This document shows positions 524-60,293 of a DNA stretch of 64,000 nt, one piece after another. The DNA lies in contig JAUCBJ010003734.1 in the NCBI GenBank assembly GCA_032718475.1, positions 62,001 through 126,000 on the forward strand, written 5' to 3'. How positions within the stretch are numbered: position 1 is the first letter of the stretch; the number at the start of each line of letters is the position of its first letter. Under the pieces are notes generated by a model. The model was not told the DNA's origin, did not search any database, and saw only the letters and a program-made list of their open reading frames with translations. The DNA comes from Nemertoderma westbladi (taxonomy: Eukaryota > Animalia > Xenacoelomorpha). The translations under genes and the position numbers were made by a program.

Positions 524-666
524 ACTGCTGGAAGGCAGGCCAGGTAGCTCGGGATGTCGATCCTTCCTTACGATCTAACTGATCCACCTACAGTATAACT
601 AGCTTATGTAACGGCTTATTTGGAATATATATATACATATAATATATGCGCAAGGAATGATTAACA

Positions 667-3600: not shown

Positions 3601-3843
3601 CACCTACAATTACAGAAGGAAGAGTTGGCGGAGGCGCCCGCAGCGACATGGCAAATGGGGCAAGGCCGAGGAAGGAGCATCAGTTGGGAACTAGTTAGCG
3701 CTCAGGGGTCGTCCTCATCGCCGGTCCCAGGAAGCGACGCCTCGAGAACGCCATCGTTGGAATCTACTGGGGGCAGACTAGTGTATATGGGAAGGGGAAG
3801 AAAGAGAGGAGTGAGCCCGAGAGACCCAGGAGCCAGCCGGTGA
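667..3843 (+). pseudogene. Disrupted copy of the accessory ORF2 (triple CCHC zinc-knuckle protein)
   Basis: ORF pieces 667-1386, 1537-1947 and 2266-3843 align to the ORF at 7187-10882. Lesions: TGA at 1384-1386 (CGA in B), frameshifts, and a ~0.5-kb deletion near 1998. Confidence 0.9.
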
Positions 3844-4213
3844 TGCCACATATCATCAAGGAGCGACAAACTATAAATATATACATCATCGTCGCTCTGA
3901 TGTATATTGTAGGCTTTAATTGTATATCCGGCTGGACTCATATACACATATAATCATATTTGTTCTAAAATCTATTGAAGGAAGTGAAGAAGGCGAAGGA
4001 GGTGATTGGCGAGACAAACCTGCGGGTTTGGCTTACTCCTTTCACCTACCTGAGCGATCACCAATTGCGATTGCATTTTTTATAATTAAGTAAATGTCCG
4101 AAATGAAAGAAATTATTACGTAATTTTATATTTAGTTTGATTATCGGCCTTTAAACGCAATAATATTTAGTTAACCAAATTCGCCTTATTAGATTGTTAA
4201 TTTGTAAATACAT

Positions 4214-6386: not shown

Positions 6387-6393
6387 CCGCTCC
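6387..6393 (-). other. Polypurine tract of element B (sense GGAGCGG), preceded by a GGGAAA/TTTCCC hairpin
   Basis: Abuts the 3' LTR start. The same hairpin and GGAGCGG are conserved at 23161-23190 in element A. Confidence 0.7.
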
Positions 6394-10100: not shown

Positions 10101-10882
10101 GCGGGTTTGGTACCCGAGTCCCGTGCCGCTTCGCGCCGCGCCTCTAGATCCTTATAGGCTCGGTACAGCGAAATGGCCGCTGCCGTCTCTATCAAACTGG
10201 GTGTCGAACAGGGTTTAATCTCCGTATACGGATCTAATGTCGTAACGGTCGGCGTAATGGGTCTCGGAGGTCGCTTTCCGCTGAAGTCGATACTGATCAT
10301 CGGGTTGCTCATCGGGTAACCTCCCTCGTCGTATCTAAGGAACTGGTGAGCTGGACATCGCGTTAATATCGGTTCCGGATGTTGCTCGTCTAGTCGGTCG
10401 GGAATCGCCACGTCTTGCTTATTCATGCATTCACCACACTTGTAGAACAGCTTGTACACGCTGAAGACTTTCGGCGTCTCCTGATCCTCGCCTCGAGTCC
10501 TCCGGTACAGATGCATTCCGTCGAACTGATCTCGGACTGCAGGTAGAGGTTCTTCGTGTCGTAAATACATATTCATATGGTACAGTCGTGCGATCTCCTC
10601 ATCCGGGTCTGCACTAATGTCACATACGTCCAAAGCAAAGTCGTAGGGATACCGCATGCGATACTCTCTCCGCAAAACTTCCATCCGGTCCCCCAACGCT
10701 CTCATTCTTTCCCTCCGTAATTCCTTATCATAAGTCGGTTTATATTTTCCGTTTAGCTCCATCACGGACCGCCCATGGTAGTAAACGTTAGAGTCTTTAC
10801 ATCCTGGTCGCGCGAATGGTAGCTCCGCCTCCTCTCTGGCAGTAAATCCTCTGCGCGGTTGCGCTCTAATATCCTTCTCCAT
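7187..10882 (-). CDS. Accessory ORF2 of element B, ~1231 aa, unknown function; three CCHC zinc knuckles, CxxC...CxxH motif, RG-rich C-terminal tail
   Basis: Open for 3.7 kb. First ATG at 10882 (the track start at 10915 is TTG; the homologue in A starts at the equivalent position, 667). Knuckles CKLCGSTRHNLKSC, CRWCNETDHSFHTC, CGYCGVKGHRSARC. Many differences from copy A are synonymous. Confidence 0.88.
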   Translation of the reverse strand: MEKDIRAQPRRGFTAREEAELPFARPGCKDSNVYYHGRSVMELNGKYKPTYDKELRRERMRALGDRMEVLRREYRMRYPYDFALDVCDISADPDEEIARLYHMNMYLRHEEPLPAVRDQFDGMHLYRRTRGEDQETPKVFSVYKLFYKCGECMNKQDVAIPDRLDEQHPEPILTRCPAHQFLRYDEGGYPMSNPMISIDFSGKRPPRPITPTVTTLDPYTEIKPCSTPSLIETAAAISLYRAYKDLEARREAARDSGTKPAGLELSSPWTAFTSPHRARSLTPEHQDDIDALRQEERAAKAKELFENRIAEYNKTADRHQEETRRVTGFVPQVVSQPRPVYYSDGTEPAILVDHPESREAIRFLPMVRMADHWNVDGLREVLCAKFLRDVPMQITDYDTLDKIGAPGKESKLFGWLDKYIKLWVAVATFPDDEEVDQTWLRRKGSYTRYDDHKAIERMWTPSDEIQRQWRKTEESLQDWRVMFYDNEGGSHQECLTSKCIQIRAADGVTHVFMRVRADRERPEPIITTQYRKGKDPREQILEVCRRGGMHGAECIDSRMLPRKVREAILNQDYVKVGSGVQSDLESDFNAMTDLEDRLPRPFVDTKLLLLWAQDIGIYREYPNSAKTGMGFIAHLLYNWDFKLKTQKKYEEVYGEYNTPPGAEFKSHFKRQALVYWNICAPPRASLQYYLVLESNMVTCLLADIVARVLKRHPLVFGGDQYVRSKGGIQSDVMKQFLTPFFNQSLENTSLVRRGLAIFQGVYRQNIGNLGDRPSMEYPTPEALEKWFGNQTRGFGTPFHSEADRPVKEGWSETLVEVFGVDLPVEKTYPKRTREEILEIEDKGEDVYFVPDRQPLTGEDDIVLDIGKEGSAKPIGDLIYERAWFPQARRCKLCGSTRHNLKSCDAVVEAAHKVCRWCNETDHSFHTCTVFISQCGYCGVKGHRSARCQLQDDSFQNHSANLLREMLDKWESVADYHIQAQMRWLPFKAGYGFWAVDPSHVAYEPYLQWLPQYQELILTAQDLPQNTGVIVVREYFRQLNMDNKYTWNFVAICDRITKGVFTETRKVVRARGDWRMAAIQYRNEFLLTHVPVGSLTAERIQEQRIAATTATTAGAQGSRKEPGGGVQDKRQVKDDHYHSIIEAQRLQRKAQGASEKARVQLHKEELAEATTGARQLGRGRGRSTSRESVGAQGTLSPVPGSDASRTPSTESTGGRLVYLEKGASPRDPGASR

Positions 10883-11639: not shown

Positions 11640-14600
11640 CTAATTCTGTTTTGAGGCAGGAGACAAATTATAATCTCCCGTCTCGATACGTGTCTCCTCT
11701 AATAACACAATATCTTGGACCGGTCGGTCCAAGGTGTGTAAACCATTAGTTTTACACTTCTTTGGGTGCGGACACTTGCACCTAATTTTCACAGTGACTG
11801 TGCGCACTATGTTTTGCACGTCTGGGTGTATATGCAAGATCACTCCCGTCTCCCAATACTTTCTCTTGACAATAGGTTCGGTTATCAGTACGTAATCTCC
11901 CCTTTGGAGACTCCGAACCGTTTTGTACCACTTTGTTCTGGTAGATATGGTGGGAAGATAGTATTCCCGCCAATATTCCCAGAATGTGTACGCGACTAAT
12001 TGAGTCATTTTCCAGCTTTTACGACTATATAGGTCGGCACTAATGGGTTCTGATGCCGGCACAAGAAATGCTGGACTCTGCATTAGCAAATGATTCGGCG
12101 TTAATGCAACACCGTCTGGCAACATAGCTATCGGCCTCGAGTTTAGTGTATGCTCGATTTCAATGAAAGCTGTGACCAGTTCGTCGTCGGTAAGTTGTTT
12201 GTTCACAGGCAATGTTTTGGCAATGGCCTGCTTTACAGAGCGAACCAAACGCTCCCAACTTCCTCCTCTCCAAGGACTTTCTGGAGTATTAAATCTCCAT
12301 TCTACTCTTTGCGGCAAAAGTGCTGCAGAAATTTCCTTATTCTGTGCCGCTTTATGAGCCGCGTTCAACTCGCTATTCCCCCCGACAAAGTTTGTACCCT
12401 TATCGGAGTAGAACGCCTTTACTAGTCCTCTCCTGGCCATAAATCTCTTCAAGGCCAGGAGCAGAGATTTGGTCGACATGTCTGCCACACGCTCAATGTG
12501 TATGGCTCTACTAGCCATGCATGTCAGTAGCAGACCCCATCGCTTGTGGGTCAGCCGTCCACTCTTTGCTTCAATCGGACCAAAACAATCCACCCCTGTG
12601 TTCGTAAAGGGTGGGTCATATGCCTGCACTCTCGCTTCCGGGAGTTCAGCCATCTCCTGTTCCAATACTCTGGCGTTCACTCTCTTGCAAACCAGACAGG
12701 CGTCATACATGGTGCCGACTGCCCTGCTTGGCTGCAATAGAATGAATCGCTGTCTCGCTGCCGACAGACAGTGTAACTTTCCCGCGTGATGTAACCGCTT
12801 GTGTATATCCCATAGAATCGCTCTTTGCAATTCTATTGGGTGACTAGGGATTATCACTGGGAACCGAAACTGTGAGTTTATGTCGACAGTCTGGATTCTC
12901 GATCTATGACAAATCAAACCCTTATGGATTAATGGACTCCATTTTCTAAGGGGTTTATAGAGAACTGGTCGTTGAGCCGATAATAGATGGAATTCTTTCG
13001 GGAAGGCACACATTTGATAGTGTTTCAAATGCTTTAATTCCGCTTGATCAATCTCATCCTCTGTCAGAGGTTGTTTCAATTTCTGAATTCGCTCACTATT
13101 AGCGCTCGATGGTTCTCTCAAATGTTTCGAATGTTTTATACAAAGGTACGAAACGTATCGGCTTAACCACGCAGTTCTTTTACAAATTGTCAGCCAAGAG
13201 GCAGACGAATTTAGTAATTTGTCATAAATACTACATGGCTCTAATGCCAGCGACGGTTGTCCGCTAACTAATGGAAGTTTCGAATCCAAACCCGCAGGTT
13301 TGGAAACCAAAGGCTCCATTTTGTCGGTCATTTTCTGTCCGTCACTTACCAATTGTGACTGTCGTCTAGTCTGTAAGGGTGGTTTTACGTCGTAACTTAC
13401 CCTTCCGGACCTAGTCGTCACGTAAGTCTGTTGGTCTGACAGGTCTCCGGGCCGCTCCAATAACTCTCCAGGCCGCTCCAATGACTCTTCAGGCCGCTCC
13501 AATGACTTGAATTTGGCTTTAGACTTCGACTTAGAGACTTTCTCCACCTTGACTTCTGCATCTTTAGGCATCGGATTGGTCACTATCTTTAGTCGCTCTG
13601 GCCAATGTTCCTGTGTCCTCGTTAGAAAATCAGGTCCATGCAACCAAAACTCCTGCGACTCTTCCTGACCGAATTCCGCCGGCATTGCACCTCTCGAAGT
13701 TATGTCGGCCAGGTTCAACACTCCCGGACAATGTCTCCATTGTTCCTTCGTCGAAAAGTCGACGATCTGAGCGCGTCTGTTGGCCACAAATGTCTTTAGT
13801 GCAATATTGTCGGCCGCAATGTATACTAACACCAAGGATGCGTCTGTCCAATAGAATAAGGTCAATGTCGTGTCTAACTCCTCAATTATCTGCTTACTTA
13901 CCTCGACCGAAACTACAGCCGCCTGTAACTCTGCACGAGGGACAGTCATGTATTTGACCGGCATTGTCTTTGATCTAGAAGTCACAAAGGCCGTCTCAAA
14001 TTTGTCCTGACTTACCTCTCGGCGAAGGTAGGCTACCATACCAAAGCCGGTGTCACTTGCGTCACTAAATAAGTGGAGTTCGAGATCAGCTGGGAATACC
14101 AGCTGATTCGGAAAGTAGGAACGGGGTACATCTATATTTTTCAATAGATGCAACTCGGCTTCCCACTCCCTCCACTGCTTTGCATGTATAGGATATATTG
14201 GTTCGTCCCACTCTAAGTCGGACAACCAAATTTTCCTCATGCACGCTCGTGCCTGTAATATAACCGGACTGATAAAGTTCATCGGGGCAAATAGTCTACT
14301 TAAAGTCGATAAGCAAATTCTCTTTGTCAAAATTTTGTCTGGGCTACTGGGCTCAAATCTAACTCTTACCTGGAACTTATCTGAGTTCGGATTCCAAGCG
14401 AGTCCCAGTACTCGCGCCATGGGAATTGGTTCTACCCCCAATTCTATGTCTCCGCTCCCGCGATCTTTCACCGGGAACGACTCTAATATGGCCTCCGAGT
14501 TTGTAGTGAACTTGGTCAGAGGAAATCCCCCTGTAGCCAAGCACTCTTGCAGGCCGTGAGCCACTTCTATGGCTTGTTCCGCTGTGTCCTTGGACACCAA

Positions 14601-17600
14601 TCCGTCGTCCATGTAGAAGTTTCTCAAGATGGACTCGATCACTTCTACTGGATACTTACCAATCTGGGCTGTTGCCGTTTTCTTTAAAACAAACAGCGTG
14701 CCGTTTGGACTATCGCGGGCGCCAAATATCCTAACGTACATCTGGTATGTAACCACTGGGCCGGATAAGTCTTCATTCTCATACCAGAGAAAGCGAAGGC
14801 TATCCTGGTCTGCCTTACAGGCTCTTACCTGGTGGAACATCGCCTCGATGTCACAAGTAAATGCGAATCGCCGCTGTCTAAAATGCAACAGTATTCCAAT
14901 CAAATAGTTATTCAGGTTGGGACCATCCATCAACTCTGAATTCAGGGACATACCTCTATAGACTGCTGCGCAGTCGTTGACTACTCGGACTTTGTCTGGC
15001 TTGTCAGGGTGAGTCACATAGTGGTGTGGAAGGTAATAAGTCTGGTCAGTCACTAAGTCAGGGTCCTCTACCTTCCCAGCAAATCCCTTGGCAAAATAGT
15101 TGTTGATCTGGGCGCAATACTTCTCCCTAATGTTCGGATTCTTTAGCAACCGAGCCCTTACTCCGTTCAATCTTTTCAAGGCTAAGTTGTAGTTGTTCTC
15201 CAATTTAGGAGGTTGTCGACGCCACAACATTCCAACTTCAAAATGTCCAGTCGGTAGCAGACGTATGGTATCTTCCATCATCTCCAGCGACCGCTTCTCA
15301 TCAGTGGACATGGCTAGGTCATATCCACCGGGTTCCATTGCGTCCCTATCCAGCCATTCGACGGTTCTGGCTCCTGTCTCGAGGTCCTGGCGTATCAATT
15401 CCTTCTGTAACTCCTCCTCACTGTATTGGAAAATGTCTAGGTCTCGATATTTAGCCACTTGACCCTCCACTATGTCTGTATAAGTCAAAACGTTAGTCAA
15501 ATAAGTAGCGTGGGCCGCTGAACCAGACCCACGGGTCTGATAACAGTAGTCCTCGGGTTCACTATCTGTCCGGTCGTTATGAAGTGGTTCCGACAACCTA
15601 ACATTATCGGGAATCAACTCCTCGTCCGACTCGCTAAAGTCACTATAGTGGTCGATACAGGTCCTCCTAAACTCGTCTATGTCCGGTGGTTCTACTAACG
15701 GTGGTTGAGTTATAGGCTGTAATTCATCGTATCTGTTCATTGGCTTGTCGCCACCTGTAAACTCATAAGACATGGGTACTCTTGTATACCAACCTAGTAT
15801 GGTCCTATGGGCATGTGGTCCATTGACATGCGGCTCAGCTGGTCTCGTTTCCCATATCTGGTGTGCGATCAGCTGTTCTGCACCAATCAACATAGAAACA
15901 TTCCTATAACCTACCTGATGTCTGGGTATCCTGAGCTTGTCAAAATACTCCTGTGCTATGGGACTCATCGGCGGCACCTTACCTAACTGCCTGCCGAATC
16001 CCTTCATAGCTAGACACTTAAATCCGTCCAATGGCAAAGCTTTCCGTTCTTGTCGAGTGTGTTGGTCTCTCGGAAGTAGGGAGTCTAGTTCCACCGAAAT
16101 TCTGTGTCCCTTGAGGTCTCCTACCCCATGCATAGACTTCAACTCTATTTGGATCTCCTCGGCGTCCTGGAAGCTAGAAACAGCTCTCGCCACTTCTTCG
16201 TCGATATACGATAATGTGGACGCAGTGTCCAACATGACATATATTCGCTTCGATCGCTTATCGCCAGTGAGTTTCACCGGAATCACGCTAAATATTTCCG
16301 ACGTGGCCGATGATAGATACGTCCGCGCGCTGGTCGATGAACTATCCGCGGTGAAACCTTGGCAGGTCACCTCTCTCGCGCTCGACTCGCCATCCTCGTC
16401 CGACGAACCTGGTTGATAACCATCGTCCTGGATGCCAGTGTACGTATTCCTCCTTATCGATATGGGTTCTTTGCTCCCCTTCCTGTGAGGATTTCGCTGT
16501 AAGTAACGGTCCGTTGGGGTATGGAAATCCGCATGTAGCAACTTGTGATGTAGTCTGCCGCATTCCATGCATCCGTCCTTGCTGTTCGGGCACTGCCGCC
16601 GTACATGACCTGGCGCAAGACATGCCCAACAGGTGTCCAACGTCCGCACTTGAACTCTTCTCTGTTCCGAATTTAATTCTTTGAACCGTCTGCAACTATC
16701 CAACTTATGGTCGTCAGATCTTACCTCCTTTAGTAAACAGTATTGGCAACCTACAAATCCATCTGGCAACTCCTGTTGCTTTAACCTAGGTCTATCTAAC
16801 CGCTCACCTGACCATACTCGCGAGTCTGATCTAAAGGCTGGGGTACTCGAATTATATCTGTCTACTGAGTTATAAGTCACAGTGGTCCTGTCATCGTCAA
16901 AACTTACCATAGACTTACCGGTAACAGGTTTAGACTCTCTCATATTCTCCTCTGAGAAGTTTGATTTCATCTCTGCTACTGTGTCTGTGGCTATCATGTC
17001 ATGAATGTGCTGAAGTGTCAACACCTTACCTTGACCCTCCAACTTATTCTCTAATTTGCGCCATTTCTGTCGGTAACGCATGTTTAGACGTCTTATTACG
17101 CTTTTCAAAACTTCGGCGTGATCACCATGATGAGGTAGATTCACCGTCCTTAAGATGTCCAATGCGTTCGAAATAGCGTTCGCTAAGTTCAACAGCTCTA
17201 ACGGAGTTGTAATCCTTCCGCCCTTACCCAAGTCTTCCACTATCGACTGCGCCATCTTGGTTTTATTCCCGTAGATGTCGCTAAGCGTCTTCATCGCTAA
17301 CTCGAATGCTCTTTCATTGCCGACGAAATTATCAGCAATGGCTCTAGGTTCTCGATGGAGCATCTGAAGCAAATAGTTGAACTTCTCATTGGGAGAAAAG
17401 GTGCTGTTGGTTAGCTGCTCGTCGACATAGGTTTTGAAAGTCCTCCAGTGCTTATGGTTGCCCATAAACTTTTGGGGTTGTTGCGTCGGCAGTCCTTGCC
17501 TAGCAGCAAACTTACCTATGTCCCTAAGGGTTGCGTCGTTCCGGGTTAACAAATGGTTTAGTTCCGCAGGGTTATTAAGTCTGGTCCTTTCCCGGTGGTT

Positions 17601-20021
17601 CCAACTTACCTGCTCCGTGTCGGTCCTTCTTTCCTTATAGTTTCGGGACTTCTGACGTCTCATTTCTTCCTCTTCATCACTTGACTCGGTGTCAGTCCTT
17701 AGCGCTCGCGATGGTTTGCGCGCTGAGGCCCTGACCCAAGCGTCCTGAATAAATTTCTCGGCCGAATTTTCGAAATTGGGATTATGAATATTCGGGACAG
17801 GCGTCCTTACCTGAGGTCTATGTGGTATAGTCTCCTCCGATATGCGTACTCGTTGACTAGGCTGGACTTTATCTAACTCAGGCCTGCTAGGATTTGAATT
17901 ACTTCTTACCTGGGCTGCTTCCTTTAACCGTAGGTTACTAAGCATGTCCGTTATAGGTTGGATGTGCGGCGATATAGCTTGCGCTAAACTAGCACTTAAC
18001 TCATCCCTCGTAATAAATTCCTGGCTAGGGTTCTGTTGTATAGTCGGCTCTATCTGAGTAATCCGCTGTCTCTCATATGATCCCTCTTCCGGTTTAACCC
18101 GGAAGTTCTCCGTCGAACTGGGTCGGCGTTCCGTCCGCGTATTCCAAACCCGCGGGTTCGGTTCGCCCAATACTCGTCCCGTTGGAGTTTCTTCTCTAAA
18201 TTCTCCATTGTCTCGTTCGGTGTATAGTGGTGCGGTGTTCCGATGACGTGGATTCTGCGCGATAGGTGAAGCACTAATACCAACTGGCGTGCGATATGTA
18301 GGGAACGGTTTAGCGATCCGTGTACTCGTAATAGCTGGACCGGGTATAGGAATTCTGGTCGTCGTCGACTCGCGTATGGTCGGAGTTCTCGCTTCCTGTT
18401 CGGCCTTCTGCAGTGCGAACAGTTCTCGCAACTCTGTCCCTACACTCGCCCCACATTCTTCGATCATTCGCATCCCCTTCTCGGCGATTTCGTTCGCCTT
18501 CCTAGTCCGTTCTTCGCTCTCTAAACTTAATCTCGCACTTTCCAACTGCGCCAGTTTACGTTCTTCTTCCTCCCTTGCTCGTCTCGCTGCGCCCTCTTCT
18601 TCCACACGCGCCTTCTCTTCATACAACGCCCGTCGCTCCCTCTCGCGCTCAAGTTCGCGCTCCTTGCGCTCGCGTTCGAGTTGGAGTTCGCGTCTTCTTT
18701 GCTCGCGTTCCTTAGCTTCCCGTTCGCGTTCGCGTTGGAGTTGGAGTTCGCGTTCTTCGCGTTCGCGTTGGAGTTGGAGTTTGCGTTCGCGTTGGAGTTG
18801 GAGTTCGTGCTCTTCGCGTTCGCGTTCAAGTTGGAGTTCTCGTTCTTCCAGTTCGTGTTCCGCTTGCTCACGCTTACCTTTGTCTTCCAACTCTCGCAAC
18901 TTTGCGTCTAACTTACGTGTGCGCTCCCGTTCCCGCTCGGCCTCCTTCCGTGCTTCCGATGCACGCAAAACTTCCGCCTGTTGTTCGTCCAGTCGGCGTC
19001 TTCTCTCCTCCGCCGAGTTGTGAGAAACAAGGGATCTAGCACATATCACCTTCCCTCGCGCGTGACTAACCTGGGAATCGCCGCTGTCTCTGGATGCATC
19101 GTCGGGTGGAGTCAACGTCCTCTGTTGGATGTTCTCCGTCGTCGGTAGCACCTGGCCCGGTACCACCACTCCATTCTGCATCAGCCAGCTAGTAACTTCC
19201 CTTTGATACCTGCGCTCCTCCTTGTCTTGGATCTCTTCTCGCTCCACTAAGTCTCTCAACTCTGCGTCACTCACCTGAGTCGCCTGCACTTGTGATGCCC
19301 ATAGCAGCCAGTTCTCCATCCTAACTCGTCGGAATCGCTCCGATAACTCGCGGTGCTCCAACAGGGCTGCCAAAACCCTATCATAAATCCTCGTCGCCAC
19401 GTCGCTCGACTGAGACTCTACTGCCTTCTTCGCTAGGACTGCAAGCTCCTCCGTCTGCTTGAATAACGCTGAGTTATATCCTCTTCTAATCTCTACTAAC
19501 TCTACCCTCCCGATGTTCGCTGAATCTGCTAACATTTTCCTTACCTTGTCCGCCGTCCGAGTTATATGTCCGGCGTGCGCGCGAAGTTTCTTCTTTATCG
19601 CGATATCCAGTTCTCTCTCGCTTACCTGACTCACACTCGGTGGACTTGAAGGATTATTTCGGGAACTACGGGTACTCCTTACAGCCGTCGGGACCACGGC
19701 ACTTACCATACCCACAGGTCTGGAAACTGGGCTCCGGGCTCTCACTTCTGCTACACTACCCTCCCTATCACTCACCTCTGTCCGGGCTGCTGTACAGTCC
19801 TTCCTTACAGTAGCGGTAGGGGATCCTAATACTATTACTTGAGGTTGTTGTTCTTCCTCACTAGTCACTGTCTCGTCCTCCTGTTCACTTACGTCAGCGT
19901 CGCTCGCTGCGTCGTCATAGTCGGCATTGTCGTCAACAGTAATATTTACGCTATCGTCAGTCGGCGGTCCAGCCGCCGTCTCATAGCTGTCCTCTAGTGC
20001 CTCCTTGTCTGAGACACTCAT
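11640..20021 (-). CDS. gag-pol: BEL/Pao Gag-Pol polyprotein, 2793 aa, single intact ORF
   Basis: Coiled-coil N-terminus; BEL-type Cys/His cluster (CQYC..H..C, CWACLAPGHVRRQC, CMECGRLHHKLLH); protease LDTAS; RT YLPHH...DIEAMFHQV...YMDD; RNase H FSDAS/PRAEL/WTDA; integrase HHCC plus DCFGP, SDKGTNF, WERLVRSVK. Order PR-RT-RH-IN. Confidence 0.97.
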   Translation of the reverse strand: MSVSDKEALEDSYETAAGPPTDDSVNITVDDNADYDDAASDADVSEQEDETVTSEEEQQPQVIVLGSPTATVRKDCTAARTEVSDREGSVAEVRARSPVSRPVGMVSAVVPTAVRSTRSSRNNPSSPPSVSQVSERELDIAIKKKLRAHAGHITRTADKVRKMLADSANIGRVELVEIRRGYNSALFKQTEELAVLAKKAVESQSSDVATRIYDRVLAALLEHRELSERFRRVRMENWLLWASQVQATQVSDAELRDLVEREEIQDKEERRYQREVTSWLMQNGVVVPGQVLPTTENIQQRTLTPPDDASRDSGDSQVSHARGKVICARSLVSHNSAEERRRRLDEQQAEVLRASEARKEAERERERTRKLDAKLRELEDKGKREQAEHELEERELQLEREREEHELQLQRERKLQLQREREERELQLQREREREAKEREQRRRELQLERERKERELERERERRALYEEKARVEEEGAARRAREEEERKLAQLESARLSLESEERTRKANEIAEKGMRMIEECGASVGTELRELFALQKAEQEARTPTIRESTTTRIPIPGPAITSTRIAKPFPTYRTPVGISASPIAQNPRHRNTAPLYTERDNGEFREETPTGRVLGEPNPRVWNTRTERRPSSTENFRVKPEEGSYERQRITQIEPTIQQNPSQEFITRDELSASLAQAISPHIQPITDMLSNLRLKEAAQVRSNSNPSRPELDKVQPSQRVRISEETIPHRPQVRTPVPNIHNPNFENSAEKFIQDAWVRASARKPSRALRTDTESSDEEEEMRRQKSRNYKERRTDTEQVSWNHRERTRLNNPAELNHLLTRNDATLRDIGKFAARQGLPTQQPQKFMGNHKHWRTFKTYVDEQLTNSTFSPNEKFNYLLQMLHREPRAIADNFVGNERAFELAMKTLSDIYGNKTKMAQSIVEDLGKGGRITTPLELLNLANAISNALDILRTVNLPHHGDHAEVLKSVIRRLNMRYRQKWRKLENKLEGQGKVLTLQHIHDMIATDTVAEMKSNFSEENMRESKPVTGKSMVSFDDDRTTVTYNSVDRYNSSTPAFRSDSRVWSGERLDRPRLKQQELPDGFVGCQYCLLKEVRSDDHKLDSCRRFKELNSEQRRVQVRTLDTCWACLAPGHVRRQCPNSKDGCMECGRLHHKLLHADFHTPTDRYLQRNPHRKGSKEPISIRRNTYTGIQDDGYQPGSSDEDGESSAREVTCQGFTADSSSTSARTYLSSATSEIFSVIPVKLTGDKRSKRIYVMLDTASTLSYIDEEVARAVSSFQDAEEIQIELKSMHGVGDLKGHRISVELDSLLPRDQHTRQERKALPLDGFKCLAMKGFGRQLGKVPPMSPIAQEYFDKLRIPRHQVGYRNVSMLIGAEQLIAHQIWETRPAEPHVNGPHAHRTILGWYTRVPMSYEFTGGDKPMNRYDELQPITQPPLVEPPDIDEFRRTCIDHYSDFSESDEELIPDNVRLSEPLHNDRTDSEPEDYCYQTRGSGSAAHATYLTNVLTYTDIVEGQVAKYRDLDIFQYSEEELQKELIRQDLETGARTVEWLDRDAMEPGGYDLAMSTDEKRSLEMMEDTIRLLPTGHFEVGMLWRRQPPKLENNYNLALKRLNGVRARLLKNPNIREKYCAQINNYFAKGFAGKVEDPDLVTDQTYYLPHHYVTHPDKPDKVRVVNDCAAVYRGMSLNSELMDGPNLNNYLIGILLHFRQRRFAFTCDIEAMFHQVRACKADQDSLRFLWYENEDLSGPVVTYQMYVRIFGARDSPNGTLFVLKKTATAQIGKYPVEVIESILRNFYMDDGLVSKDTAEQAIEVAHGLQECLATGGFPLTKFTTNSEAILESFPVKDRGSGDIELGVEPIPMARVLGLAWNPNSDKFQVRVRFEPSSPDKILTKRICLSTLSRLFAPMNFISPVILQARACMRKIWLSDLEWDEPIYPIHAKQWREWEAELHLLKNIDVPRSYFPNQLVFPADLELHLFSDASDTGFGMVAYLRREVSQDKFETAFVTSRSKTMPVKYMTVPRAELQAAVVSVEVSKQIIEELDTTLTLFYWTDASLVLVYIAADNIALKTFVANRRAQIVDFSTKEQWRHCPGVLNLADITSRGAMPAEFGQEESQEFWLHGPDFLTRTQEHWPERLKIVTNPMPKDAEVKVEKVSKSKSKAKFKSLERPEESLERPGELLERPGDLSDQQTYVTTRSGRVSYDVKPPLQTRRQSQLVSDGQKMTDKMEPLVSKPAGLDSKLPLVSGQPSLALEPCSIYDKLLNSSASWLTICKRTAWLSRYVSYLCIKHSKHLREPSSANSERIQKLKQPLTEDEIDQAELKHLKHYQMCAFPKEFHLLSAQRPVLYKPLRKWSPLIHKGLICHRSRIQTVDINSQFRFPVIIPSHPIELQRAILWDIHKRLHHAGKLHCLSAARQRFILLQPSRAVGTMYDACLVCKRVNARVLEQEMAELPEARVQAYDPPFTNTGVDCFGPIEAKSGRLTHKRWGLLLTCMASRAIHIERVADMSTKSLLLALKRFMARRGLVKAFYSDKGTNFVGGNSELNAAHKAAQNKEISAALLPQRVEWRFNTPESPWRGGSWERLVRSVKQAIAKTLPVNKQLTDDELVTAFIEIEHTLNSRPIAMLPDGVALTPNHLLMQSPAFLVPASEPISADLYSRKSWKMTQLVAYTFWEYWREYYLPTISTRTKWYKTVRSLQRGDYVLITEPIVKRKYWETGVILHIHPDVQNIVRTVTVKIRCKCPHPKKCKTNGLHTLDRPVQDIVLLEETRIETGDYNLSPASKQN

Positions 20022-21214
20022 AGTCTAAATAATGTTTGCCTTCCGGCAAAATATCTCGCAAAAGTTCGAGGTATAATTATAATTTAACCGAAATACGGTC
20101 AAATTATTTGTCAAATAATCAGTTGGTCCAAATGTCAAATAAATTCACAATGCAATATTGTGAATTTAATGGGGTATAGTTATAGCAAATACTAGCACAA
20201 TATTTAAACAAAAATATTATTATATAGCTACTATATAGTATTAAATACCGGTATAGCACAAAATAACTTTGAATCTAATACAAAATATTCAAAATAAACT
20301 TGCTACCCGAATATTTCTAATTTTATATATATAGCTCTAATCAACGCAATTTTAATTTCAAATATTATATGTATCCACTAGCGCGTGGCTACATCTTCGG
20401 GTTGCGACTCTCTCTAACTCTCTCTCTAACTTGAGCGATTCAAAAAACCATGGCCGGCTAAACCTAAATATCCTAACTAATAAATTGAGTTCAGCTTCGC
20501 AGTTAAACAACCGGTAATTTTTTACTGCTTCCACAAACACAATGGTGCCAACAGAACAACTAACCTTGTTTGCTGTGAGATTCCACGTCCGCGTCCAAAG
20601 ATTCAGGCCCTTCGCTGATTGCAAACCGAACCCGCAGACCCACACGAACCCCAAACTCAGAAGTCCCGTCTTGCCATGTATCTCCAGATGGTATAAAATA
20701 ACTAAGCGGTTACCTAACATACCGGTACAAAACTCTAGAATTTTACAAAATAATTTTGACCGAAACTGAATTCTCGCAAACCTAGCTAAAATTTTCAAAA
20801 CTTACTAATTACAAATTGCCCTAAGGCCTAAGGAACTGCTGTATTCGCAATTAGCAAAAACGCACTACCGTACATCCACTGTATGCAGCACAGTAAGTAA
20901 AACAGTACACCAACCTAATAGCCTAATGATACTGTGTGTGGTACGGCAAAACAAATGTCCCTTCTACCGTACGCAGTAACAGCAATCAGCCTAATGTACT
21001 ACTGTACTATTGTACGCAGCCAATGAATACAGTAATCTAAACTAGTAGCCTAAAAGAATATATTCAATGTTCTACCGTACGCTAGCCTATAACAGTATAG
21101 CCTACAGCAGACGATCACGTGCTCCAACTTATTACTTAATACTGTGATACTACTAATCAGCCTAAGAATACACTATTGACTGCTGCAAGCAACAGCCAAT
21201 AATGCGCGTATTAC

Positions 21215-22994
21215 TGATAAACAACCGCGACCTCTATACTAACAGCAGAACTGTTGAACAGACAAATACCCGTTAATATCCTTCTGTCAACCTAATGAGC
21301 TCTCGCCTAACCAATAAGACACAAAGACTGCTCTACCGTTAAGTAAAGGGGATCAGGAGCGTGATATTACTAAATTGTAAAGGTTGCTAAATACAAAACC
21401 GCTACTTACCGTTAGATGGCGCTAACCTGCCGTCCGCTAATATATTTTACTAAATTTACACAGCTCCTGCAAAATGCAAATAACCGCTCAGCGTGAATAG
21501 TTTACAGTACTCTAATTATTACCTTAGCTACTCTCCGCTATGCTGCGTACTAATTCTTAATTTTTTACTAATCAATTACAGTCACAAATATTTAACAGCG
21601 TACTAATTACTAAGAGTTCCAGAATGCGTAATTCTAATTTATCACGCAACAGGTTTCGCTAGTAATAGCCTAAATTGCCGTATTACTTTGACCTAATCAG
21701 TAACTAATCGTTGTAACTAAGAAATAGAAATCAATCAAAGAGAAAAGGGCGCCTACCTAAACATTCACAATCATAGGCACACTTCAGTAACACACCAATC
21801 AGCGTCAGCAATCACAGTTCGCAATTATGCAGTTAACTACTGTATAGCCCACAATTGTGCGATTCACTATTCGTACTCCACACTCAACGTTGTAATACGC
21901 GCAGGCCTCTCCCGGATACATCTAGGCTTCCTAACTAACCCGATTCCTGCCCCCCTAATACTAAATAGAGACGAAACCTGGATCATCAGCCCCCTAGTTA
22001 CTGTATCGGCGAATGGTCTGCGTGTTACAGTGCAAAATGCCCGCCCGCAACGGTGACCCCCCGCCAGCGTTGCCCGTCTTTGAATCCTCCGCTCTCCCCT
22101 AGTCGCTCAACCCCCCGATGTGCCCACCGCCTACTGGCACCTTAGCCCTCCATCATGCTAATAGCTACCGTAGCGGCGCATGCAAAATCACAAAGTCTGA
22201 CAGTCTCAGAAATCCCTTAGGATTATTGCGTAGAAAGGAATCACATAGAACCATTAATCAAAAGGTAGAAATCATAGTTCCGGTTGTAATTAGCAGTAAT
22301 CGATAGGATTAATTGAGAAACACAATCAAGAATAATCGCACTAGCAAATCATTTCGAGAAATTAATCGAAAATAGCAAATTGCAGAAATACGCTAAAATA
22401 TCCGTCAAAAGGTGAATAGGGACAGCTCAGCAAGTACAGGGGTGATAGAGATAGAGCTCTACCGGCACACCGCCAATTTATAGGTGATCCGAGTGGGTGA
22501 TGCAATAGGGTGACTCAATCGCTCTCCTATTGGCTCTCCAGTCCGCGCTAGCATTAGACCAACCTGGAAGCAGTTAGTCCAATAAGGAGGCCGGATTGTA
22601 GCCCTATTGCTGCCCAAACCTCAAATTATTACCATATATGGTAATGGATCATGTCCCTGGCTGCTGAATGGCCAGGACAGCGTCTCTATATGCTAGCCCT
22701 ATTGATGCTAATATCAGCAAGCACAAAATCCAGGGTCCGACTAAACTTGCTACCCTGGAACTATCTACATATATCCTAATACAAAATTACGTAGGTAGGG
22801 CTACATATTATACAAAATGGATGGATTCAAATATATGGGCGTTTTGGTTTCCCTATCTAAATATCACCTCGCTATTATATCTTATCTAAAGTATTATGCT
22901 GCACAACGGACTAATATTGCGTACAGTATAACGGACTAATATATTATACTGCATAATGACTAATAATGTGGATACAGCGCCATATACCTTAACA
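21215..22994 (-). repeat. 5' LTR of element B (1780 bp; lacks a 392-bp block present in the 3' LTR)
   Basis: Matches 4214-6386 except for the missing equivalent of 4475-4866, one C in a C-run and about five substitutions seen by eye. Confidence 0.95.
22476..22645 (-). promoter_or_regulatory. Candidate LTR (U3) promoter: CArG box, CCAAT boxes, AP-1, C/EBP-ATF site, TATA
   Basis: Palindrome ATTACCATATATGGTAAT at 22628-22645, TGACTCA, TGATGCAAT and sense TATAAAT at 22476-22482. The same cluster is at 5868-6037. Motif match only. Confidence 0.55.
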
Positions 22995-25100
22995 TACATG
23001 AAAGAAGGTATATTTTTGTAATTTAATTTGTATGTAGTATCATTATGCAATAAGAGTAGCAATATTTTGTACGTAATTATTATAGAACGAAGTTGTTTGA
23101 TTTATTTGAAAGTAAATATATTTTGTTATTCCACATCGCCCTATTTCTTCTACAATTGGAGGGAAACATTACTTGTTTCCCTTGGAGCGGTATTACGATA
23201 TATGGCGTTGTGTACCAGAACAGCCCATTATACAGTATGGAGCGATTAGATAAGTTATATCGATGTACAGCATTCATTAGATAGGGAAAATAAAATACAC
23301 GAGTTTATATAATTCATCCGATTTTGTACAGTATGTAGCCTTACATATGTAAATTTGTAATAAAACCTTAGTATATAAATTTACGGTAGCAAACTTTCAT
23401 AAAACATTAATATGAGTTTGCCGTTTATTGACATTAACCGAACTTAATATGTATTTGTACTAATTTCTCTTATATTTCTCTAAAAACTAACGTTGTACTA
23501 AATTGATGCTAATGTGCTTTAATAATCGCGAAATTAATGCTACGGCCATAAACCTATAAGCCCACCGAGACAGATTCATTACCATATATGGTAATAATTT
23601 GAGAAATGGGGAAGCATAGGATCTCGATCCGGCTCTCCCATTGGCCTAGCTATTTTAGGTTGATCTAATGGTAGTAGAATTTGTTGGACCAATGATATAA
23701 CCATTGCGTCATACCAATTTTTTTGTCAGTATCAGTGTTCAGTGTATCAGTACACCAGTACAGTGGTATAGTGCTCGTGTTAGTTGATTTAAATGTTTTA
23801 ATCTTCTTGCTTGTTACTTCTGCTAATTCTGTAAATTGTTATATGCTGATTTCTACTGTTACGCCTTTTGATTACAACTTTGAATAATGATCTTCTTGCA
23901 TTGACTCTTGATTTCTTTAATCTTTGTGATTGCGATGTAGCAAATCCTTACAAGGATTTTCCCTTTCAACTGTCAGACTGTTTGTAAATGCATGCGCCGA
24001 TACGGTAACTATTTGCTTTAGCATGATGGGCTAAGGGTACCGGTAGGCGTAGCGGGTGTACTGAGGAAGCGACGGAAGGAGGAGTGGAGAATCCAATGAG
24101 GGGCAAAGCTGTGCGGAGGGCTAGCAGTTGTGGTTGGGATTATCAATAGGGACCGTGGACCGGTCATCACTACAGTGTTTGGGGGCTGACAATACAGACT
24201 TCGTCTCAACCTTGTAGTACTAGGGTAGTAATAGCGGGTGTAGTTAGGAGGACCGCATGTAGTCTGGGTGACCTTATTGCTCTCTTACACTAATCTATAC
24301 GCTAGTTTACACTAGTCGACACTAGCTGACTAGCGCTGTCGATAGCACTACCAGCGCTGTTGCTAATGCTATTTTATGTTGTGTTGCTGAAGAGTGCCTG
24401 ATGTTTGAATGTAAATGATTAGATAGGCGCTACTTTTCTTGATTGTTTTCTATTTCTAAGTTTATGCTTATTAATTGCTGTTAGGTCAAAATAATACAGT
24501 ATTTAGGCTGTTGCTAGTATAACTCAGTAACGTAATAATTAGTAGTACGTATTCTGGAATACTTCGTAATTAGTACGCAAATCTGTAATTTTGAGACACC
24601 GTAGTTTATTTAGCATGTTAGAATAAAATTAAGAACTTGTACGCTGCATAGCGGAGAATAGTTGGGTAAATTACTCTTAGAATTACCGTAGATTATTCAA
24701 CGCTAGGTGGTTATTTGAAAATAGCGAGTTAGCGGACTGACAGTGGTAGCCAGTGTAGCACAGTAGTAATTTGCTGGCCTAAAGCCAGCGCAAGGACAAG
24801 TTCCGACATTAGGGCAAATTAATAGCCTATCCCATTATAATAGTAAAATATTCTCACATTCGACGTTATTCCGCCCGATAACTGCCTGTAATTCTCTTTG
24901 GGAAGTGGGCGCCGAGTGCTAAGTCACCGCACTCATATTAAGTAGCTTAGGGAGCCATTTCAGATTTATTGTTTTGGTTGCTGCTGTTTTGGATTATAAA
25001 TTCAAACAGTTAGCTCTCTGTTGAGAAATCGACAGAGAAAGGAGCGTGTGATTGTCAGAGCCGTATAGTTCATAACAGTAAAATATTCTTAGAAGACGGT
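22995..25100 (+). mobile_element. Element A, right part: rest of 3' UTR, PPT (23184-23190) and diverged 3' LTR starting at 23191 (right end approximate)
   Basis: Reverse-complement similarity to ~6610-4430 of element B. GGAGCGG is followed by TATTACG (TGTTACG in B); CArG palindrome kept at 23578-23595; similarity fades near 25100. Confidence 0.85.
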
Positions 25101-25399
25101 TCTGGAGGTCCTGCTTGCGTTCGACAGTAAGAGATTGCGTTGGGCTAAGGTGGATCGCTTAACAGATCTCGCATTGAAAAGCCCAATGCAAAAACTAGAT
25201 TCACCAAAACTAAGAGCTGGCTGATCCAGCCAGAGTTTGGATCCGTTCCAGCCACCCTGGGACAAAGGATCTGGAACATCCAGACGATCTGGAACCGAGG
25301 GGAACCGCTTCTACTATTCTAGAACCAAGCAGGAAAACCCCTAGACGTCAATGCAGTGATATTAGAAACAGTCTGGGTTGGAGAGATAAAGTTAACTTT

Positions 25400-26700
25400 T
25401 AGTCAATCATTTTGTGTTGGTATTTCTCCCAAACTCTGCCGAGATTGATATTGATGTTTTGTTGATTTGCAGACTGAAACTCGTGGAGGCGCGATTGTAA
25501 GATCAACCAGTTTGTGCGAATCTCCCAATGATATATGGTTGTTGATTTTTGAAGTGCGCGTTGAATTATCCTGCCGAAATCTATCTGGTCTAGACTCAGT
25601 AGTAGCTTCCACAACTTATCCATTGTATATGACACGGGATTTACCAGGATATGCTGCAATCCGATATCTTCGCTCATCACGCAGCTCAAATTGCAATCGT
25701 CTTTCTTCTGGTGTATATTCGGGAGAAATATACACTCGCTTGTAATGTTCTACATTGCGAAGTTCCCGAGAGTTGCGTAGAAGCTGCTGACCTTTCTCTG
25801 TTGGAAGAGTAACAACTATCGTGGTCGATCGAATACCTTTTTGATATTAACAAAAACGCTTCGTGCTTATATCACTTTTAACTAAACCTTTATGGATCTA
25901 GCAATATCTATTACATTGTAATTACATTGTAATAGTATTACAATCCTTATATTTCCGATCCGTAGATTTATCACTAGATTTACATTTGTTGTGCTCCTAT
26001 TCCTCGCGTTTTATCTGCTTGATTGAACTGCAATGTTTGGAGATTTCCTATTCGATTTTACATTAAAAGCATAAGATACTTCGGTCCATTCACCCCCATT
26101 GTTATAAACTGTGCTTGTTTCCTTAAGCTTGATAACTGATATTTCAGTTTCAAGATCGCTCATCATTGCTGTGGTTTCCTCACTTTCTGTTTCTAGTTGA
26201 ACACGGACTTCCTCCAATCTAGAGAATGCCGATTCTCTAGTGTCATTGCACTTCTTTTCCAATTTTTCCGATCTACTGGAAAAGTTGTCCAATTGCTGCT
26301 GCATCTCGAGTGGATTATCCGCGACTCGCGATTCGTGTTTCTCAAAGTCTGCGACTACTCCAAGCAAAGCGCGTTGGCTCACACAAGGACCGCAGTAAAA
26401 ATCAACTCTGCCAAACCCAGTTCCTTCCCTAGAAAATCATTGAAACTTCGCAGTTAGAACCAGAGCAGTTCCGACCTCGATTTCAGTAAATCCATCAACC
26501 TGGTTGACATCCCGCGGCACATTTTGCCTACTTTTCCTTTTAATTCGTGTAGATTTGGAATTGATTTGACGCGACACTATTTGTCTCTGAGTAGCGATAG
26601 AGTTTCGTCTTGCTTTTCGTCCTGCCTGTTTTTATGCTATTGTCTTGATTTTTCATGAACTCATTTCCGTAATAACGTTTTTGGGCATTACGCATAATTT
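25400..26700 (-). mobile_element. Decayed LINE (CR1/L2/Jockey-like) ORF1 remnant
   Basis: Coiled-coil ORF 26011-26382 ending ..GEWTEV.., and QLLRNSRELRNVEHYKRVYISPEYTPEERRLQFELRDE at ~25670-25795, which resembles the ORF1 C-terminal motif. Interrupted by stops. Confidence 0.65.
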
Positions 26701-29875: not shown

Positions 29876-32361
29876 ATTTATAGGAATAAATATAATAAGC
29901 CTATCGTAAATACCGGTATGTCAATTATTTTATAATAACTGAATTTCTGAATTTTAGGGTTACTTTACGTTACTTTATTACCGTTATTTAAGCAGTAGTC
30001 CAACTGATATTAAGACATAATTGATGGATGACAGGCCTACTATTTTATAAATCGGTTTGAGTTGATTTATAATATATATATAACCTTATAATGGGTTTTT
30101 TGACAATATTTGAAATAAATGTTATTATTTCTGGTAAGGAGTCACTACACAGAAGCTGTACGCTCTCAGTGAAGTGCTACTTGTTGGACACTAAAACAAA
30201 TAATTCTACTTGACTAAGTTACTTATTACTACAAATTACGTACAATTACGGGTGAGATTACAATCTCTAAATAAACACAAAAAAATTACACGTACAAATT
30301 TTAGGGTAATTTTACAGGAAATCTACAAACCAGTCTAACAAGGGTTAGAATTTCTGGTTATTACAAACGGACAGGAAACTACGGTATTTGAAAATAATAA
30401 AGCAGTAGTAAATATATTGCCTTGTCTAGATAAGAAAATACCACCGTCTGACGACTTATAGTCTCTAGCTTTACAGCTCTATAAGTACTACGTTATGTAC
30501 CCGGAATGTCCCTACCTAGAAGTTAATTACCGCAGCCAACCATAGCTAACGTGCCTATTAACCACTTTACAACACAAATATACTGCCCACACACTAATTA
30601 CCTTCGGAAAGCACTGTACACTAAAGCCTAAATTAGGTACAAGTACTTATACAACAAATAACCAGCAGTTAAAAATACTTGTACAGCTAAAAGAACCACG
30701 GTATCTGCTGGAGTGACTAGAGCATAAAATCACCAGTCTTTACCTACGCCAAACAGCCCTGATGTAGTACCGGGGTTAATTTAACTATAACGGTATGTAT
30801 AACAAGCACAATTACTGTAGGAATAAACTTGGGGTTGTGTATGTTGCGAATAATCACATAAACTCTGAATAATAAATATTACGCTACCCGTACAGACTAC
30901 ACAAACAACATACAAACCAAATGCTGACAGACTACTATCAAGCCTAAATAAACTACAGTATATGCAGACTCCGAAATGGTTAGTTAGTATGCGTTCTAAC
31001 CGAGTAGTACGACTTATTCTTTCGGAGGGGATTTACCTTACAACACTGGATGCCCCCACCTTCCTAACTAGTATTTTATCGGACATACACTCTACACACA
31101 CTGCAATCTCTTTGGACCTGACAACAGCCAGACAACAATCCAGCCTACAAATTACTTGTACAATCTGAGCAGGCTTACACGCCTTCTGCTCAATATTAAC
31201 TTACAGATAAATAAAACTGACAGAAATTAATAAGCTCAAAAAGAAACAAGGGGTGTACAGTCCCTAATCTCTTAAACAGCCTACCAATATACAATATCAC
31301 AATCGAAATAATACTAGTACCTGTACTGCTGTAAGTACCGGTTCGGGTGGTTAGGCAGTCAGGCCTACAGGTTACCGGTCGACCGCTACTTTCGACTTTA
31401 TTGCCTACGTTGCAATAAAGAAACTAGAATAACTGTTATTGTTCTTACCAGAACAATAGACAACTATATTTATTGCCTACACTGCAATCTGAAACAAATA
31501 ACTGTAATTGTTCGCGCTTTTAGACCTTTAGCAGTTTAACCTGCCAATTTTAGGTGTCTTCTAGTTTATAAATCGACTTTAGCCTATAACAAGTATTTGA
31601 TACACATAAAGCTACATTAGCCGAAGCCAGCCTATGCGCGATCATTCACCCACGGTTAAGGGAGACTGGATTCGGATGCTCTGACCTTATTGCGGTGTAG
31701 ACTCACTGTACTATTCGATTGATCGTTAATATATAATCTCTGACAAATATTATTCACTTTCGGGAAATATTAACATTTCCTTTAGGACGTGGCGCTCTAA
31801 GTATGTAAACAGAGTTATGACTTACACTAAACACAACGGGATGGCTAATGATTTTCGTATAAAGCGCATTCTTTGGGAAATGCTTTGTTATCTGTCACAC
31901 TCATGCACACTACCGCACACTGCTGCACACTGATCTGCCGACCTTCACTAAATTTGATCATATATAAGAAGAATAGCAACTGACACATGTAGGGATTATG
32001 AAATAGCATTCAATTCACTCCAAAACCACTATAATGTAAGTCGCAGTTGCTACAGGTAACTGGCCCCTCTTACCTTCAGTATATCAAGAAGATTGGGGTT
32101 TTATGATTATTTATCGATATTCTCCAAATATAACAACATATCCATCAACTTATAACAATAAATAACCGACAGTAAACAGAAGTAAAATAATGCGGTGAAA
32201 GTTGGGTAGGACGTAATGCATTGAGTTTACTGGACTGTACCGTGTGCCGTGATAACAGTTATATGTTCCTATAATCAAAGCCGTTCTAATGTTTGGCTAA
32301 AGTCTGAAACTCAGAATAATTCCAAAGCCGATGTTCTGGGGCTCAGGAAAAGGTAAACAAA
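29876..32361 (-). mobile_element. Inverted 5' part of BEL/Pao element C: partial 5' LTR (31509-32361) and 5' UTR
   Basis: Reverse complement of ~43412-45466. Its distal end resembles the tandem units at 33200-33410 upstream of gag and joins them when the segment is re-inverted at TTAA. Confidence 0.75.
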
Positions 32362-33199: not shown

Positions 33200-33541
33200 G
33201 CTGAAATTATATACCGGTATTCTGTAATTAATTCTAGTCTATAATTATACCTATATATACTATAAGTGTAAGCTGTATACTGGTATTCACAGTAGGCTTA
33301 TTATATATTTATATATATTTGCGCTGAAATTATATACCGGTATTCTGTGATGAACCCTAGTCTGTAATAATACTTATATTATATACTATAAGTGTATACC
33401 GGTATTCTAATATATTGTATATAACACGTTACACTGAGTAACGGTATCGGTAATTAATTACTAGGCTTATAGTTGATACTGAATTACTAGACTTGCTTTA
33501 ACTGTAGTTATAGTAGTAGGCATTCAACTGTACAAACAAAC

Positions 33542-39500: not shown

Positions 39501-39980
39501 CTGAAGAAACCTGTAGCCATGCTCCCACGATCGGAAATCACGGACGGAGACGAATACTGCCGGCAAACTTGGCAACTTATGCAGTTGTTATCCCGTCGTT
39601 TCGCTGACCATTTCGAAAAACATTATCTGCCTACGCTACAACTTCGAACTAAGTGGTTTGCGCAGCAAGAAAACGTCAGCGCCGGAGACATGGTCCTTAT
39701 TGTGGAATCAGATCTTCCACGTAAGCGGTGGCAGACAGGTCGTATCATCGAGACTCATATCTCAGATGATGGTTTGGTGCGATCGGTAGAACTCGTCGTC
39801 ATGCGACGTAACTTTAAGAAACCTGGAATTGTGTTCGAAACACAACAACTCAATCGCCCAGTTGGTCGTTTATGTTTACTAGAAAGAGACAGAGAACTCT
39901 CCGGAAACTATGGAAGGCAAGATACTCTTCCCGCGACCACCTCCCTAATCCAACCAACATCCAGGGACTCCCCAACGTAA
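33542..39980 (+). pseudogene. gag-pol: BEL/Pao element C gag-pol, decayed (stops and frameshifts in gag, stop at 38859-38861)
   Basis: CALCDGPHRLSVC and CAKCGAKHHILLH knuckles, protease LDSG, RT YLTHH/DIEGMFLQV/YMDD, RNase H FGDAS/PRAEL/WTDA, integrase DLFGP/SDKGTNF/WERLIRSVK. Confidence 0.95.
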
Positions 39981-51780: not shown

Positions 51781-51794
51781 TAACGCCATTAATT

Positions 51795-60236: not shown

Positions 60237-60293
60237 TCATGATCAATATCAATTTACCAGCCGAAGAACAAATTATCAACATTCACAACCAGA

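Follow-up and report, generated by a model that had tools for sequence, protein, structure and literature searches.

A BEL/Pao retrotransposon of Nemertoderma westbladi that probably uses its own RNA as the primer for reverse transcription

Elements of the BEL/Pao type, second in abundance among the groups of animal long terminal repeat (LTR) retrotransposons according to the accessible part of PMC3118150, are described by the international virus taxonomy committee (ICTV) as the Belpaoviridae, with LTRs of 0.2-1.2 kb, genomes of 4.2-10 kb and a primer-binding site (PBS) of 18 nt at which host tRNA-Arg or tRNA-Gly starts reverse transcription, and their replication is termed 'poorly understood' (PMC8742986). 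For the BEL/Pao element Achilles, a tRNA-Tyr PBS is given in the available portion of PMC4580426. Self-priming has been described for Tf1/sushi elements (Ty3/gypsy) and for Tcn1, and is predicted for the Ty1/copia elements TAR, Houba and Osr-1, in the accessible parts of PMC6317226 and PMC3601003. Here we describe element B, a BEL/Pao retrotransposon in a 64,000-nt window of the Nemertoderma westbladi genome (contig JAUCBJ010003734.1, 62,001-126,000; all coordinates are window positions), which very probably primes itself in some form. No paper on self-priming in BEL/Pao was found in the literature searched, with subscription papers, GyDB, Repbase reports and bioRxiv supplements lying outside the search, and word searches of the available text of PMC3118150, PMC554778, PMC6238403 and PMC8556966 found no discussion of the PBS.

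Comparison of the window with itself delimits B as a span of 18.8 kb on the minus strand (22994-4214). B lies immediately ahead of the 3' LTR of a related element, A, which it entered in the opposite orientation; A is broken, and its 5' end falls outside the window. The LTR ends of B are set by the LTR pair together with a 5-bp target-site duplication (TSD), as listed in Table 1. Identity between the two LTRs is 99.6% over 1523 bp and complete over 261 bp, and 390 bp of the 3' LTR (4475-4863) are missing from the 5' LTR. Because the LTRs are so alike and both open reading frames (ORFs) are open, the copy is young, and on its sequence B is an intact-looking BEL/Pao LTR retrotransposon. It shares with the Belpaoviridae (Semotivirus) the TG...CA LTRs, the 5-bp TSD and a single gag-pol ORF carrying BEL/Pao Pfam domains, here in the order PF03564, PF05380, PF17921 and PF18701 with the integrase last; PF05380 was present in 52 of 52 matches, and a Pfam scan gave no chromodomain match. 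Judged by these domains, B is BEL/Pao by descent. It nevertheless departs from the Belpaoviridae profile in priming and in size, as it has no tRNA-type PBS, an LTR of 2.2 kb and a span well above 10 kb. Contigs from sequencing runs match the region in 5400 records (X1) and 2520 records (X3), and with records in the thousands the family is therefore widespread in that organism; no relatives were found in the viral contigs or prokaryote genomes searched.

The evidence for self-priming begins directly after the 5' LTR, where the 12-mer GTAATACGCGCA has an exact complement inside the LTR itself. Pairing between the two begins at position +1 after the LTR, runs for 12 bp and extends on neither side. 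An earlier note on this DNA had reported both 12-mers, a pairing that stops exactly at the LTR boundary and the absence of a TGG; letters and positions proved exact, with one and the same 12-mer reading at 21203-21214 on the plus strand and at 21892-21903 and 5283-5294 on the minus strand, nothing pairs beyond the boundary, and no TGG lies 0-5 nt past the LTR end. A published in-silico rule, given in the accessible part of PMC6317226, assigns self-primers to elements with at least 10 LTR-complementary nucleotides beginning 0-5 nt after the LTR, and B, with 12 nt from +1, falls within it. A fortuitous match in a copy whose PBS has decayed might be suspected, given a single B copy and the many windows scanned, but this is barely credible and has been largely refuted already. 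Dinucleotide shuffling of the LTR gave the complement of B's PBS in only 5 of 20,000 cases (24 of 20,000 if a 12-mer match may start anywhere from +1 to +5), the PBS alone among 14,817 interior 12-mers of B has an LTR complement, the copy is young, and the same pattern recurs in distant relatives, as set out below. Over the region, contigs from four runs contain 1097 variable places; neither 12-mer is hit among the 40 of these that were listed, a share too partial for a claim of conservation.

The first TGG in B, at +17, is enclosed in a hairpin and can presumably be ruled out as the PBS, for a primer seated at that point would have lengthened the LTR by 16 bases. The 64-kb window holds no tRNA gene, and no Rfam family scored above chance at 20000-26000, hence no known ribozyme either.

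To place the match in a wider context, a profile search was made, and from 586 BEL/Pao loci the best 80, which are 33-41% identical to B, were taken. The 3' end of the LTR was set by two diverging copies in 17 of them, reduced to 16 because L003 duplicates L007; the other 63 of the 80, with no LTR end set by two copies, were left out. Contiguous and spliced pairing with the element's own LTR, the latter under strict splice signals, was assessed for each. Own-LTR pairing of 10-15 nt was found in 12 of the 16 relatives, with letters that differ between families. In nine (L007, L009, L017, L028, L030, L035, L036, L038 and L039) the 10-15 nt span an exon junction within the LTR; the predicted introns measure 76-186 nt and are bounded by GT...AG, mostly with GTAAG donors and pyrimidine-rich acceptors, and the paired part of the first exon comprises only 4-9 nt, which suggests that the first exon is tiny. 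The remaining three (L047, L060 and L070) pair contiguously over 10-12 nt. Among 200 shuffles per element, 0-3 were as good as the spliced matches and 4, 6 and 0 as good as the contiguous ones. The LTR start of L009 was placed about 260 nt too early, which leaves the position of its match unaffected. For B itself, a splice-junction primer was rejected, as the best candidate of 9 nt was equalled by 26 of 40 shuffles. As an observation apart, the PBS of L047 and L070 adjoins or overlaps the gag start codon, and from this arrangement primer pairing could also gate translation there.

When every PBS was crossed with every LTR, at least 10 nt paired in 13 of 17 own combinations (B included) as against 6 of 272 cross combinations, most of the six falling among three related elements. 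This contrast is covariation between families, not among B's copies. The inference of self-priming made in the earlier note is thereby upheld: self-priming is the best explanation because the match lies far beyond chance, sits at the required primer end and has its counterpart in 12 of 16 distant relatives.

The 13 candidate primers, those of the 12 relatives and of B, have further traits in common. Eleven end in AC or ACN, against a background of 9%, and AC, B's own ending, is found in 10 of the 12 relatives; 11 of 13 also have their first base at a pyrimidine-purine step, against 50% in the background (p=0.012). No TATA box occurs 10-45 nt upstream of any of the 13 sites; a poly(A)-type signal follows every one of them, and they fall at 0.37-0.72 of the LTR length (B at 0.50). 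The trimer GGA occurs no more than 12 nt upstream of the primer in nine of 12 relatives and in B, and is the sole trimer of 64 to survive correction. In a FastTree tree of 91 rows of reverse transcriptase (RT) and RNase H, restricted to BEL/Pao and rooted at the midpoint with no outgroup, B and a further element of the window, C, form long branches within a group (Shimodaira-Hasegawa-like support 98) that contains all self-pairing relatives; L020, two insect rows and two nematode rows fall outside it.

The shared AC ending can also be read as the mark of a host primer, since at the 3' end of a tRNA the discriminator A followed by the first C of CCA gives AC. The LTR pairing would then be structural, serving packaging or a translation switch, and the true primer would be a half-tRNA, a tRNA that lacks its terminal CA or some small RNA; half-tRNA priming does exist in Ty1/copia groups, according to the part of PMC6317226 available. 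This account is nonetheless distinctly unlikely, given that the site of each family fits that family's LTR or splice junction rather than those of others (the 13 of 17 as against 6 of 272) and always ends no more than 5 nt from the LTR end, and that no tRNA or Rfam family was found in the region. Among the tRNA 3' 12-mers of supplement 1 of PMC13524379, none contains ACAGCCA, which the TGG at +17 would require, and one shares merely TATTAC with the site.

Among the forms that self-priming could take, we favour as the probable one, if with less assurance than self-priming as such, that B primes with the 5' end of its own RNA in the manner of Tf1. A TATA-less promoter would start transcription at 21903 or a few bases from it, the RNA 5' end would fold back over about 690 nt (about 1080 nt in copies with a full LTR) onto the PBS, and the hairpin just past the PBS would limit the duplex to 12 bp. 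RNase H belonging to the element's RT would then cut after the C at 21892, giving expected RNA ends near 21903 (5') and at 21892 (3'), and the freed 3'-OH would be extended straight into the last LTR base, which under this proposal accounts for a pairing that goes exactly as far as the LTR boundary. Plus-strand synthesis would copy the primer, so that the PBS would be rewritten from the LTR in every cycle and the two 12-mers kept matched. A start at the G of 21902 would yield an 11-nt primer.

Folding models are consistent with such a start. With the native 5' sequence, the predicted probability of the 12-bp duplex is 0.92-0.99 if the RNA begins between 21912 and 21900 and 0.63-0.85 for 21915-21913; it is 0.05 at 21960, 0 at 22200 and 0.3 at 22455. 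Upstream of the primer, TAGTTAGGA and the CC/T that follows it are kept in A at matching spacing (34 nt in B, 33 nt in A), making this a weak candidate for a non-TATA core-promoter motif. The identity of A and B is 0.58-0.84 in the 300 nt preceding the site; over 100 nt from the site onward it is 0.56-0.58, with no sharp boundary. The likely poly(A) signal lies 322 nt past the primer, and the 12-mer is therefore placed in R or at the U3/R border. On these models, the RNA of B probably starts at the primer, near 21903. Two other candidates were rejected, namely a primer at the poly(A) site, given the downstream position of the likely signal, and a conserved RNA fold that A and B would share upstream of the primer, as 67 of 100 column shuffles fold equally well. 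A possible internal promoter before ORF2, the second ORF of B, rests on a 13-nt match that recurs in 3 of 5000 shuffles for a window chosen post hoc and in 27 of 1000 for the whole LTR; it is weak and is not kept in A.

Several observations pull in the other direction. Folding predictions across 800-1400 nt are unreliable, and both the TATA and CCAAT boxes 579 nt upstream and an acceptor-like site common to A and B, 57 nt upstream, point to a longer 5' end. The motif TAGTTAGGA was chosen post hoc and occurs also at 20479, 31070 and 44629, and A has not kept the copy that precedes ORF2 in B. R and U5 together would measure about 1080 nt, compared with whole LTRs of 177-686 bp in the relatives. 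Among these relatives, four of 16 pair over fewer than 10 nt (L020, which has a TGG, and L050, L075 and L077, whose LTR ends are uncertain), and L009 can also be read as a TGG site. GGA marks the nine splice-type relatives and none of the three contiguous ones, is absent from A and occurs in 13% of windows of the B LTR. The relatives are, moreover, distant from B and related to one another, and B sits on a long branch whose placement is unsure.

Some of these observations would suit an internal primer, in which transcription would begin close to the TATA box (about 22455), the RNA perhaps being spliced to 21961, and RNase H would cut only on the 3' side of the primer, leaving it a long 5' extension. 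TATAAA and CCAAT/ATTGG boxes are indeed present, the branch-point-like motif, pyrimidine tract and TAG of the acceptor are similar in A and B, and LTR introns are common in the relatives (9 of 16). The earlier note had itself cautioned that the best TATA candidate lies far upstream of the primer. The box is real, but the caution carries little weight, as no TATA box stands near the primer at any of the 13 sites, A does not have B's TATA, and the duplex is predicted only for starts close to 21903, with the values given above for 21960 and 22455 speaking against the internal primer as well. Nor does any convincing upstream donor occur in common to A and B, and plus-strand synthesis, if it follows the retroviral scheme, would lack a natural stop after 12 nt. 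We thus regard the internal primer as unlikely and retain priming by the RNA 5' end.

A different source of primer is conceivable in view of ORF2, which occupies the env position and comprises 1245 codons from stop to stop and encodes 1231 amino acids (aa). A profile built from ORF2 and five distant relatives (27-32%) matches the EXD2 exonuclease domain (E=1.4e-5) together with CCHC knuckles, and Atlas scores agree, at 0.84 for the whole protein and, to PF01612 clusters, 0.91 for the domain; ORF2 gave no direct Pfam match, and its fold model is unusable (pLDDT 35). The candidate catalytic motifs are YDNE at 498, KVGSGVQSD at 589 and YYLVLE at 702, in which E replaces the last D of the ExoIII Y-x-x-x-D. 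A counterpart with breaks lies in A at about 660-3843 (+), with 75-78% identity. The bdelloid rotifer Juno/Vesta LTR elements and the Terminons likewise carry, after pol, an extra ORF, ORF3, with a DEDDy-type 3'-5' exonuclease, as the available part of PMC5408684 describes; compared with these, to which it is likened by description, B is BEL/Pao, its ORF2 is 1231 aa long with three CCHC knuckles, and its closest solved relative is EXD2.

Such an enzyme might expose the 3' R copy of the 12-mer as the primer by trimming the RNA from its poly(A) end back to the duplex. The candidate DEDDy-type motifs D-x-E, D and Y-x-x-x-E and the zinc knuckles would agree with this, as would the retention of the ORF in A and the position of the 12-mer upstream of the likely poly(A) signal, and ORFs of this kind have been proposed, in the accessible part of PMC5408684, to process the 3' ends of retrotransposon RNA. 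The idea is very improbable all the same. In the 12 self-pairing relatives the stretch from the pol match to the LTR measures at most 393 nt, too little for such an ORF, which means that the exonuclease ORF is not needed for the pairing; trimming would need to remove more than 320 nt, folding predicts that the 3' copy is masked by upstream U3, and exonuclease catalysis by ORF2 is itself a prediction from sequence. A role of ORF2 in primer making thus appears unlikely on sequence grounds. It is, similarly, quite improbable that tRNA priming was lost across a wide BEL/Pao branch, mostly in favour of primers built by splicing of LTR introns, with B as a long-LTR form whose exonuclease makes or trims the primer, whether by chewing from the poly(A) end to the duplex, in which case priming would start from the genome's 3' end, or by trimming plus-strand overrun.

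Priming by the RNA 5' end invites comparison with other self-primers, described or predicted. Tf1/sushi elements have a helper RNA structure near the PBS, a U5-IR-like stem-loop; for B, folding predicts the hairpin past the PBS and a structured U5 end as possible counterparts. In contrast to the Ty3/gypsy chromoviruses Tf1, Tf2, Tj1, the Tf1/sushi group and Tcn1, and to TAR/Houba/Osr-1, however, B is BEL/Pao and belongs neither to Ty3/gypsy nor to Ty1/copia. It differs from the Tf1 type also in the placement of its 12-nt match within a 2.2-kb LTR, in a distance of about 1 kb between primer and PBS and in its extra ORF for a putative exonuclease, and many of its relatives differ in building the primer across an intron. 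From these comparisons, B likely works like Tf1 without belonging to the Tf1/sushi group.

Element A offers a partial view of the same site. The earlier note had pointed to a related sequence near 24278, and TGCTCTCTTAC is found there (24278-24288), at the place that aligns with B's primer; the post-LTR sequence of A lies outside the window. A candidate at 25125-25134 (+) in A's U5, CA followed by GTAAGAGA, was considered as a PBS of A or a retained copy of the primer and is probably a coincidence. Here a donor-like GTAAG runs into 8 nt that complement the 3' part of the site in A aligned with the primer; in the alignment the candidate falls on a donor-like GTAAG inside B, and cover by multiple copies seems to extend some 25 or more bases further. 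Donor-like GTAAG sites occur in U5 of B at 21409, 4625 and 4583 (-), one of them aligned with A's 25127, and judging by their sequence could give rise to leaders spliced to gag-pol or ORF2.

The LTRs of A and B share an identical block of 27 nt (22648-22622, -; 23576-23602, +) containing a 16-nt palindrome, in sequence terms likely a factor-binding site in U3; the motif had no match in metagenome contigs. U3 stretches of 14 nt and 12 nt are repeated in B's 1.2-kb leader (20308-20275, -), and a protein-coding frame in the LTR block was rejected, as no open frame is common to the compared LTRs. Element C (33540-42327, +) is BEL/Pao with RT-RNase H 45% identical to that of B; it is broken by stops, its 3' LTR apparently begins at about 39997, and no 5' LTR was seen in the window. 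C is enclosed by foldback-like inverted repeats of about 2.1 kb (30233-32359 and 43414-45466, 96-99% complementary) that contain inverted 35-bp satellite arrays. The window further includes a BEL/Pao integrase fragment at 54642-55898 (+), tandem arrays of 29-bp and 37-bp units at 51385-54635, and a Ty3/gypsy-type pol at 60243-64000 (+) that runs off its end.

Table 1. Positions of the features of elements A and B in the window
Feature	Position	Strand	Remarks
5' LTR of B	21215-22994	-	1780 bp; TG...CA; lacks 390 bp of the 3' LTR
3' LTR of B	4214-6386	-	2173 bp
TSD ATGTA, left copy	22995-22999	-
TSD ATGTA, right copy	4209-4213	-
PBS GTAATACGCGCA	21203-21214	-	directly after the 5' LTR; no tRNA-type TGG
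Candidate self-primer in 5' LTR	21892-21903	-	12 nt, all pairing with the PBS; 3' end AC
Same 12-mer in 3' LTR	5283-5294	-
12-bp hairpin	21174-21201	-	one base past the PBS; predicted pairing probability 0.93-1.0; contains the first TGG
GGA upstream of primer	21910-21912	-	as in 9/12 relatives; absent in A
TAGTTAGGA, weak candidate non-TATA core-promoter motif	21929-21937	-	34 nt upstream of primer; 33 nt in A's LTR
Candidate 3' splice site	21961-21989	-	branch-point-like CTGAT, pyrimidine tract, TAG; 57 nt upstream of primer; similar in A
TATAAA, with CCAAT/ATTGG boxes upstream	22477-22482	-	579 nt upstream of primer; TATA not kept in A
AGTAAA, likely poly(A) signal	21564-21569	-	322 nt past primer; aligned with AATAAA in A (24622-24627)
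Polypurine-tract-like bases before 3' LTR	6387-6393	-	identical letters before A's LTR
gag-pol, single ORF	11640-20024	-	2794 aa; Pfam DUF1759, Peptidase_A17, Integrase_H2C2, DUF5641 (BEL/Pao)
ORF2	7187-10882	-	first ATG 10882; predicted EXD2-like DEDDy-type 3'-5' exonuclease domain (aa ~498-707); three CCHC knuckles (aa 904-961)
3' LTR of A	23201-25165	+	right end inferred, uncertain
A sequence aligned with B primer	24274-24288	+	keeps TGC...TTAC, differs between

If B and its relatives do prime themselves, tRNA-independent priming would have arisen or persisted in a third superfamily of LTR retrotransposons. Such elements would presumably lie beyond the reach of PBS-directed silencing by 3' tRNA fragments. 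Annotation pipelines based on the PBS would then misjudge self-priming BEL/Pao elements, and screens for contiguous matches would also miss the form in which the primer is built across a splice junction.

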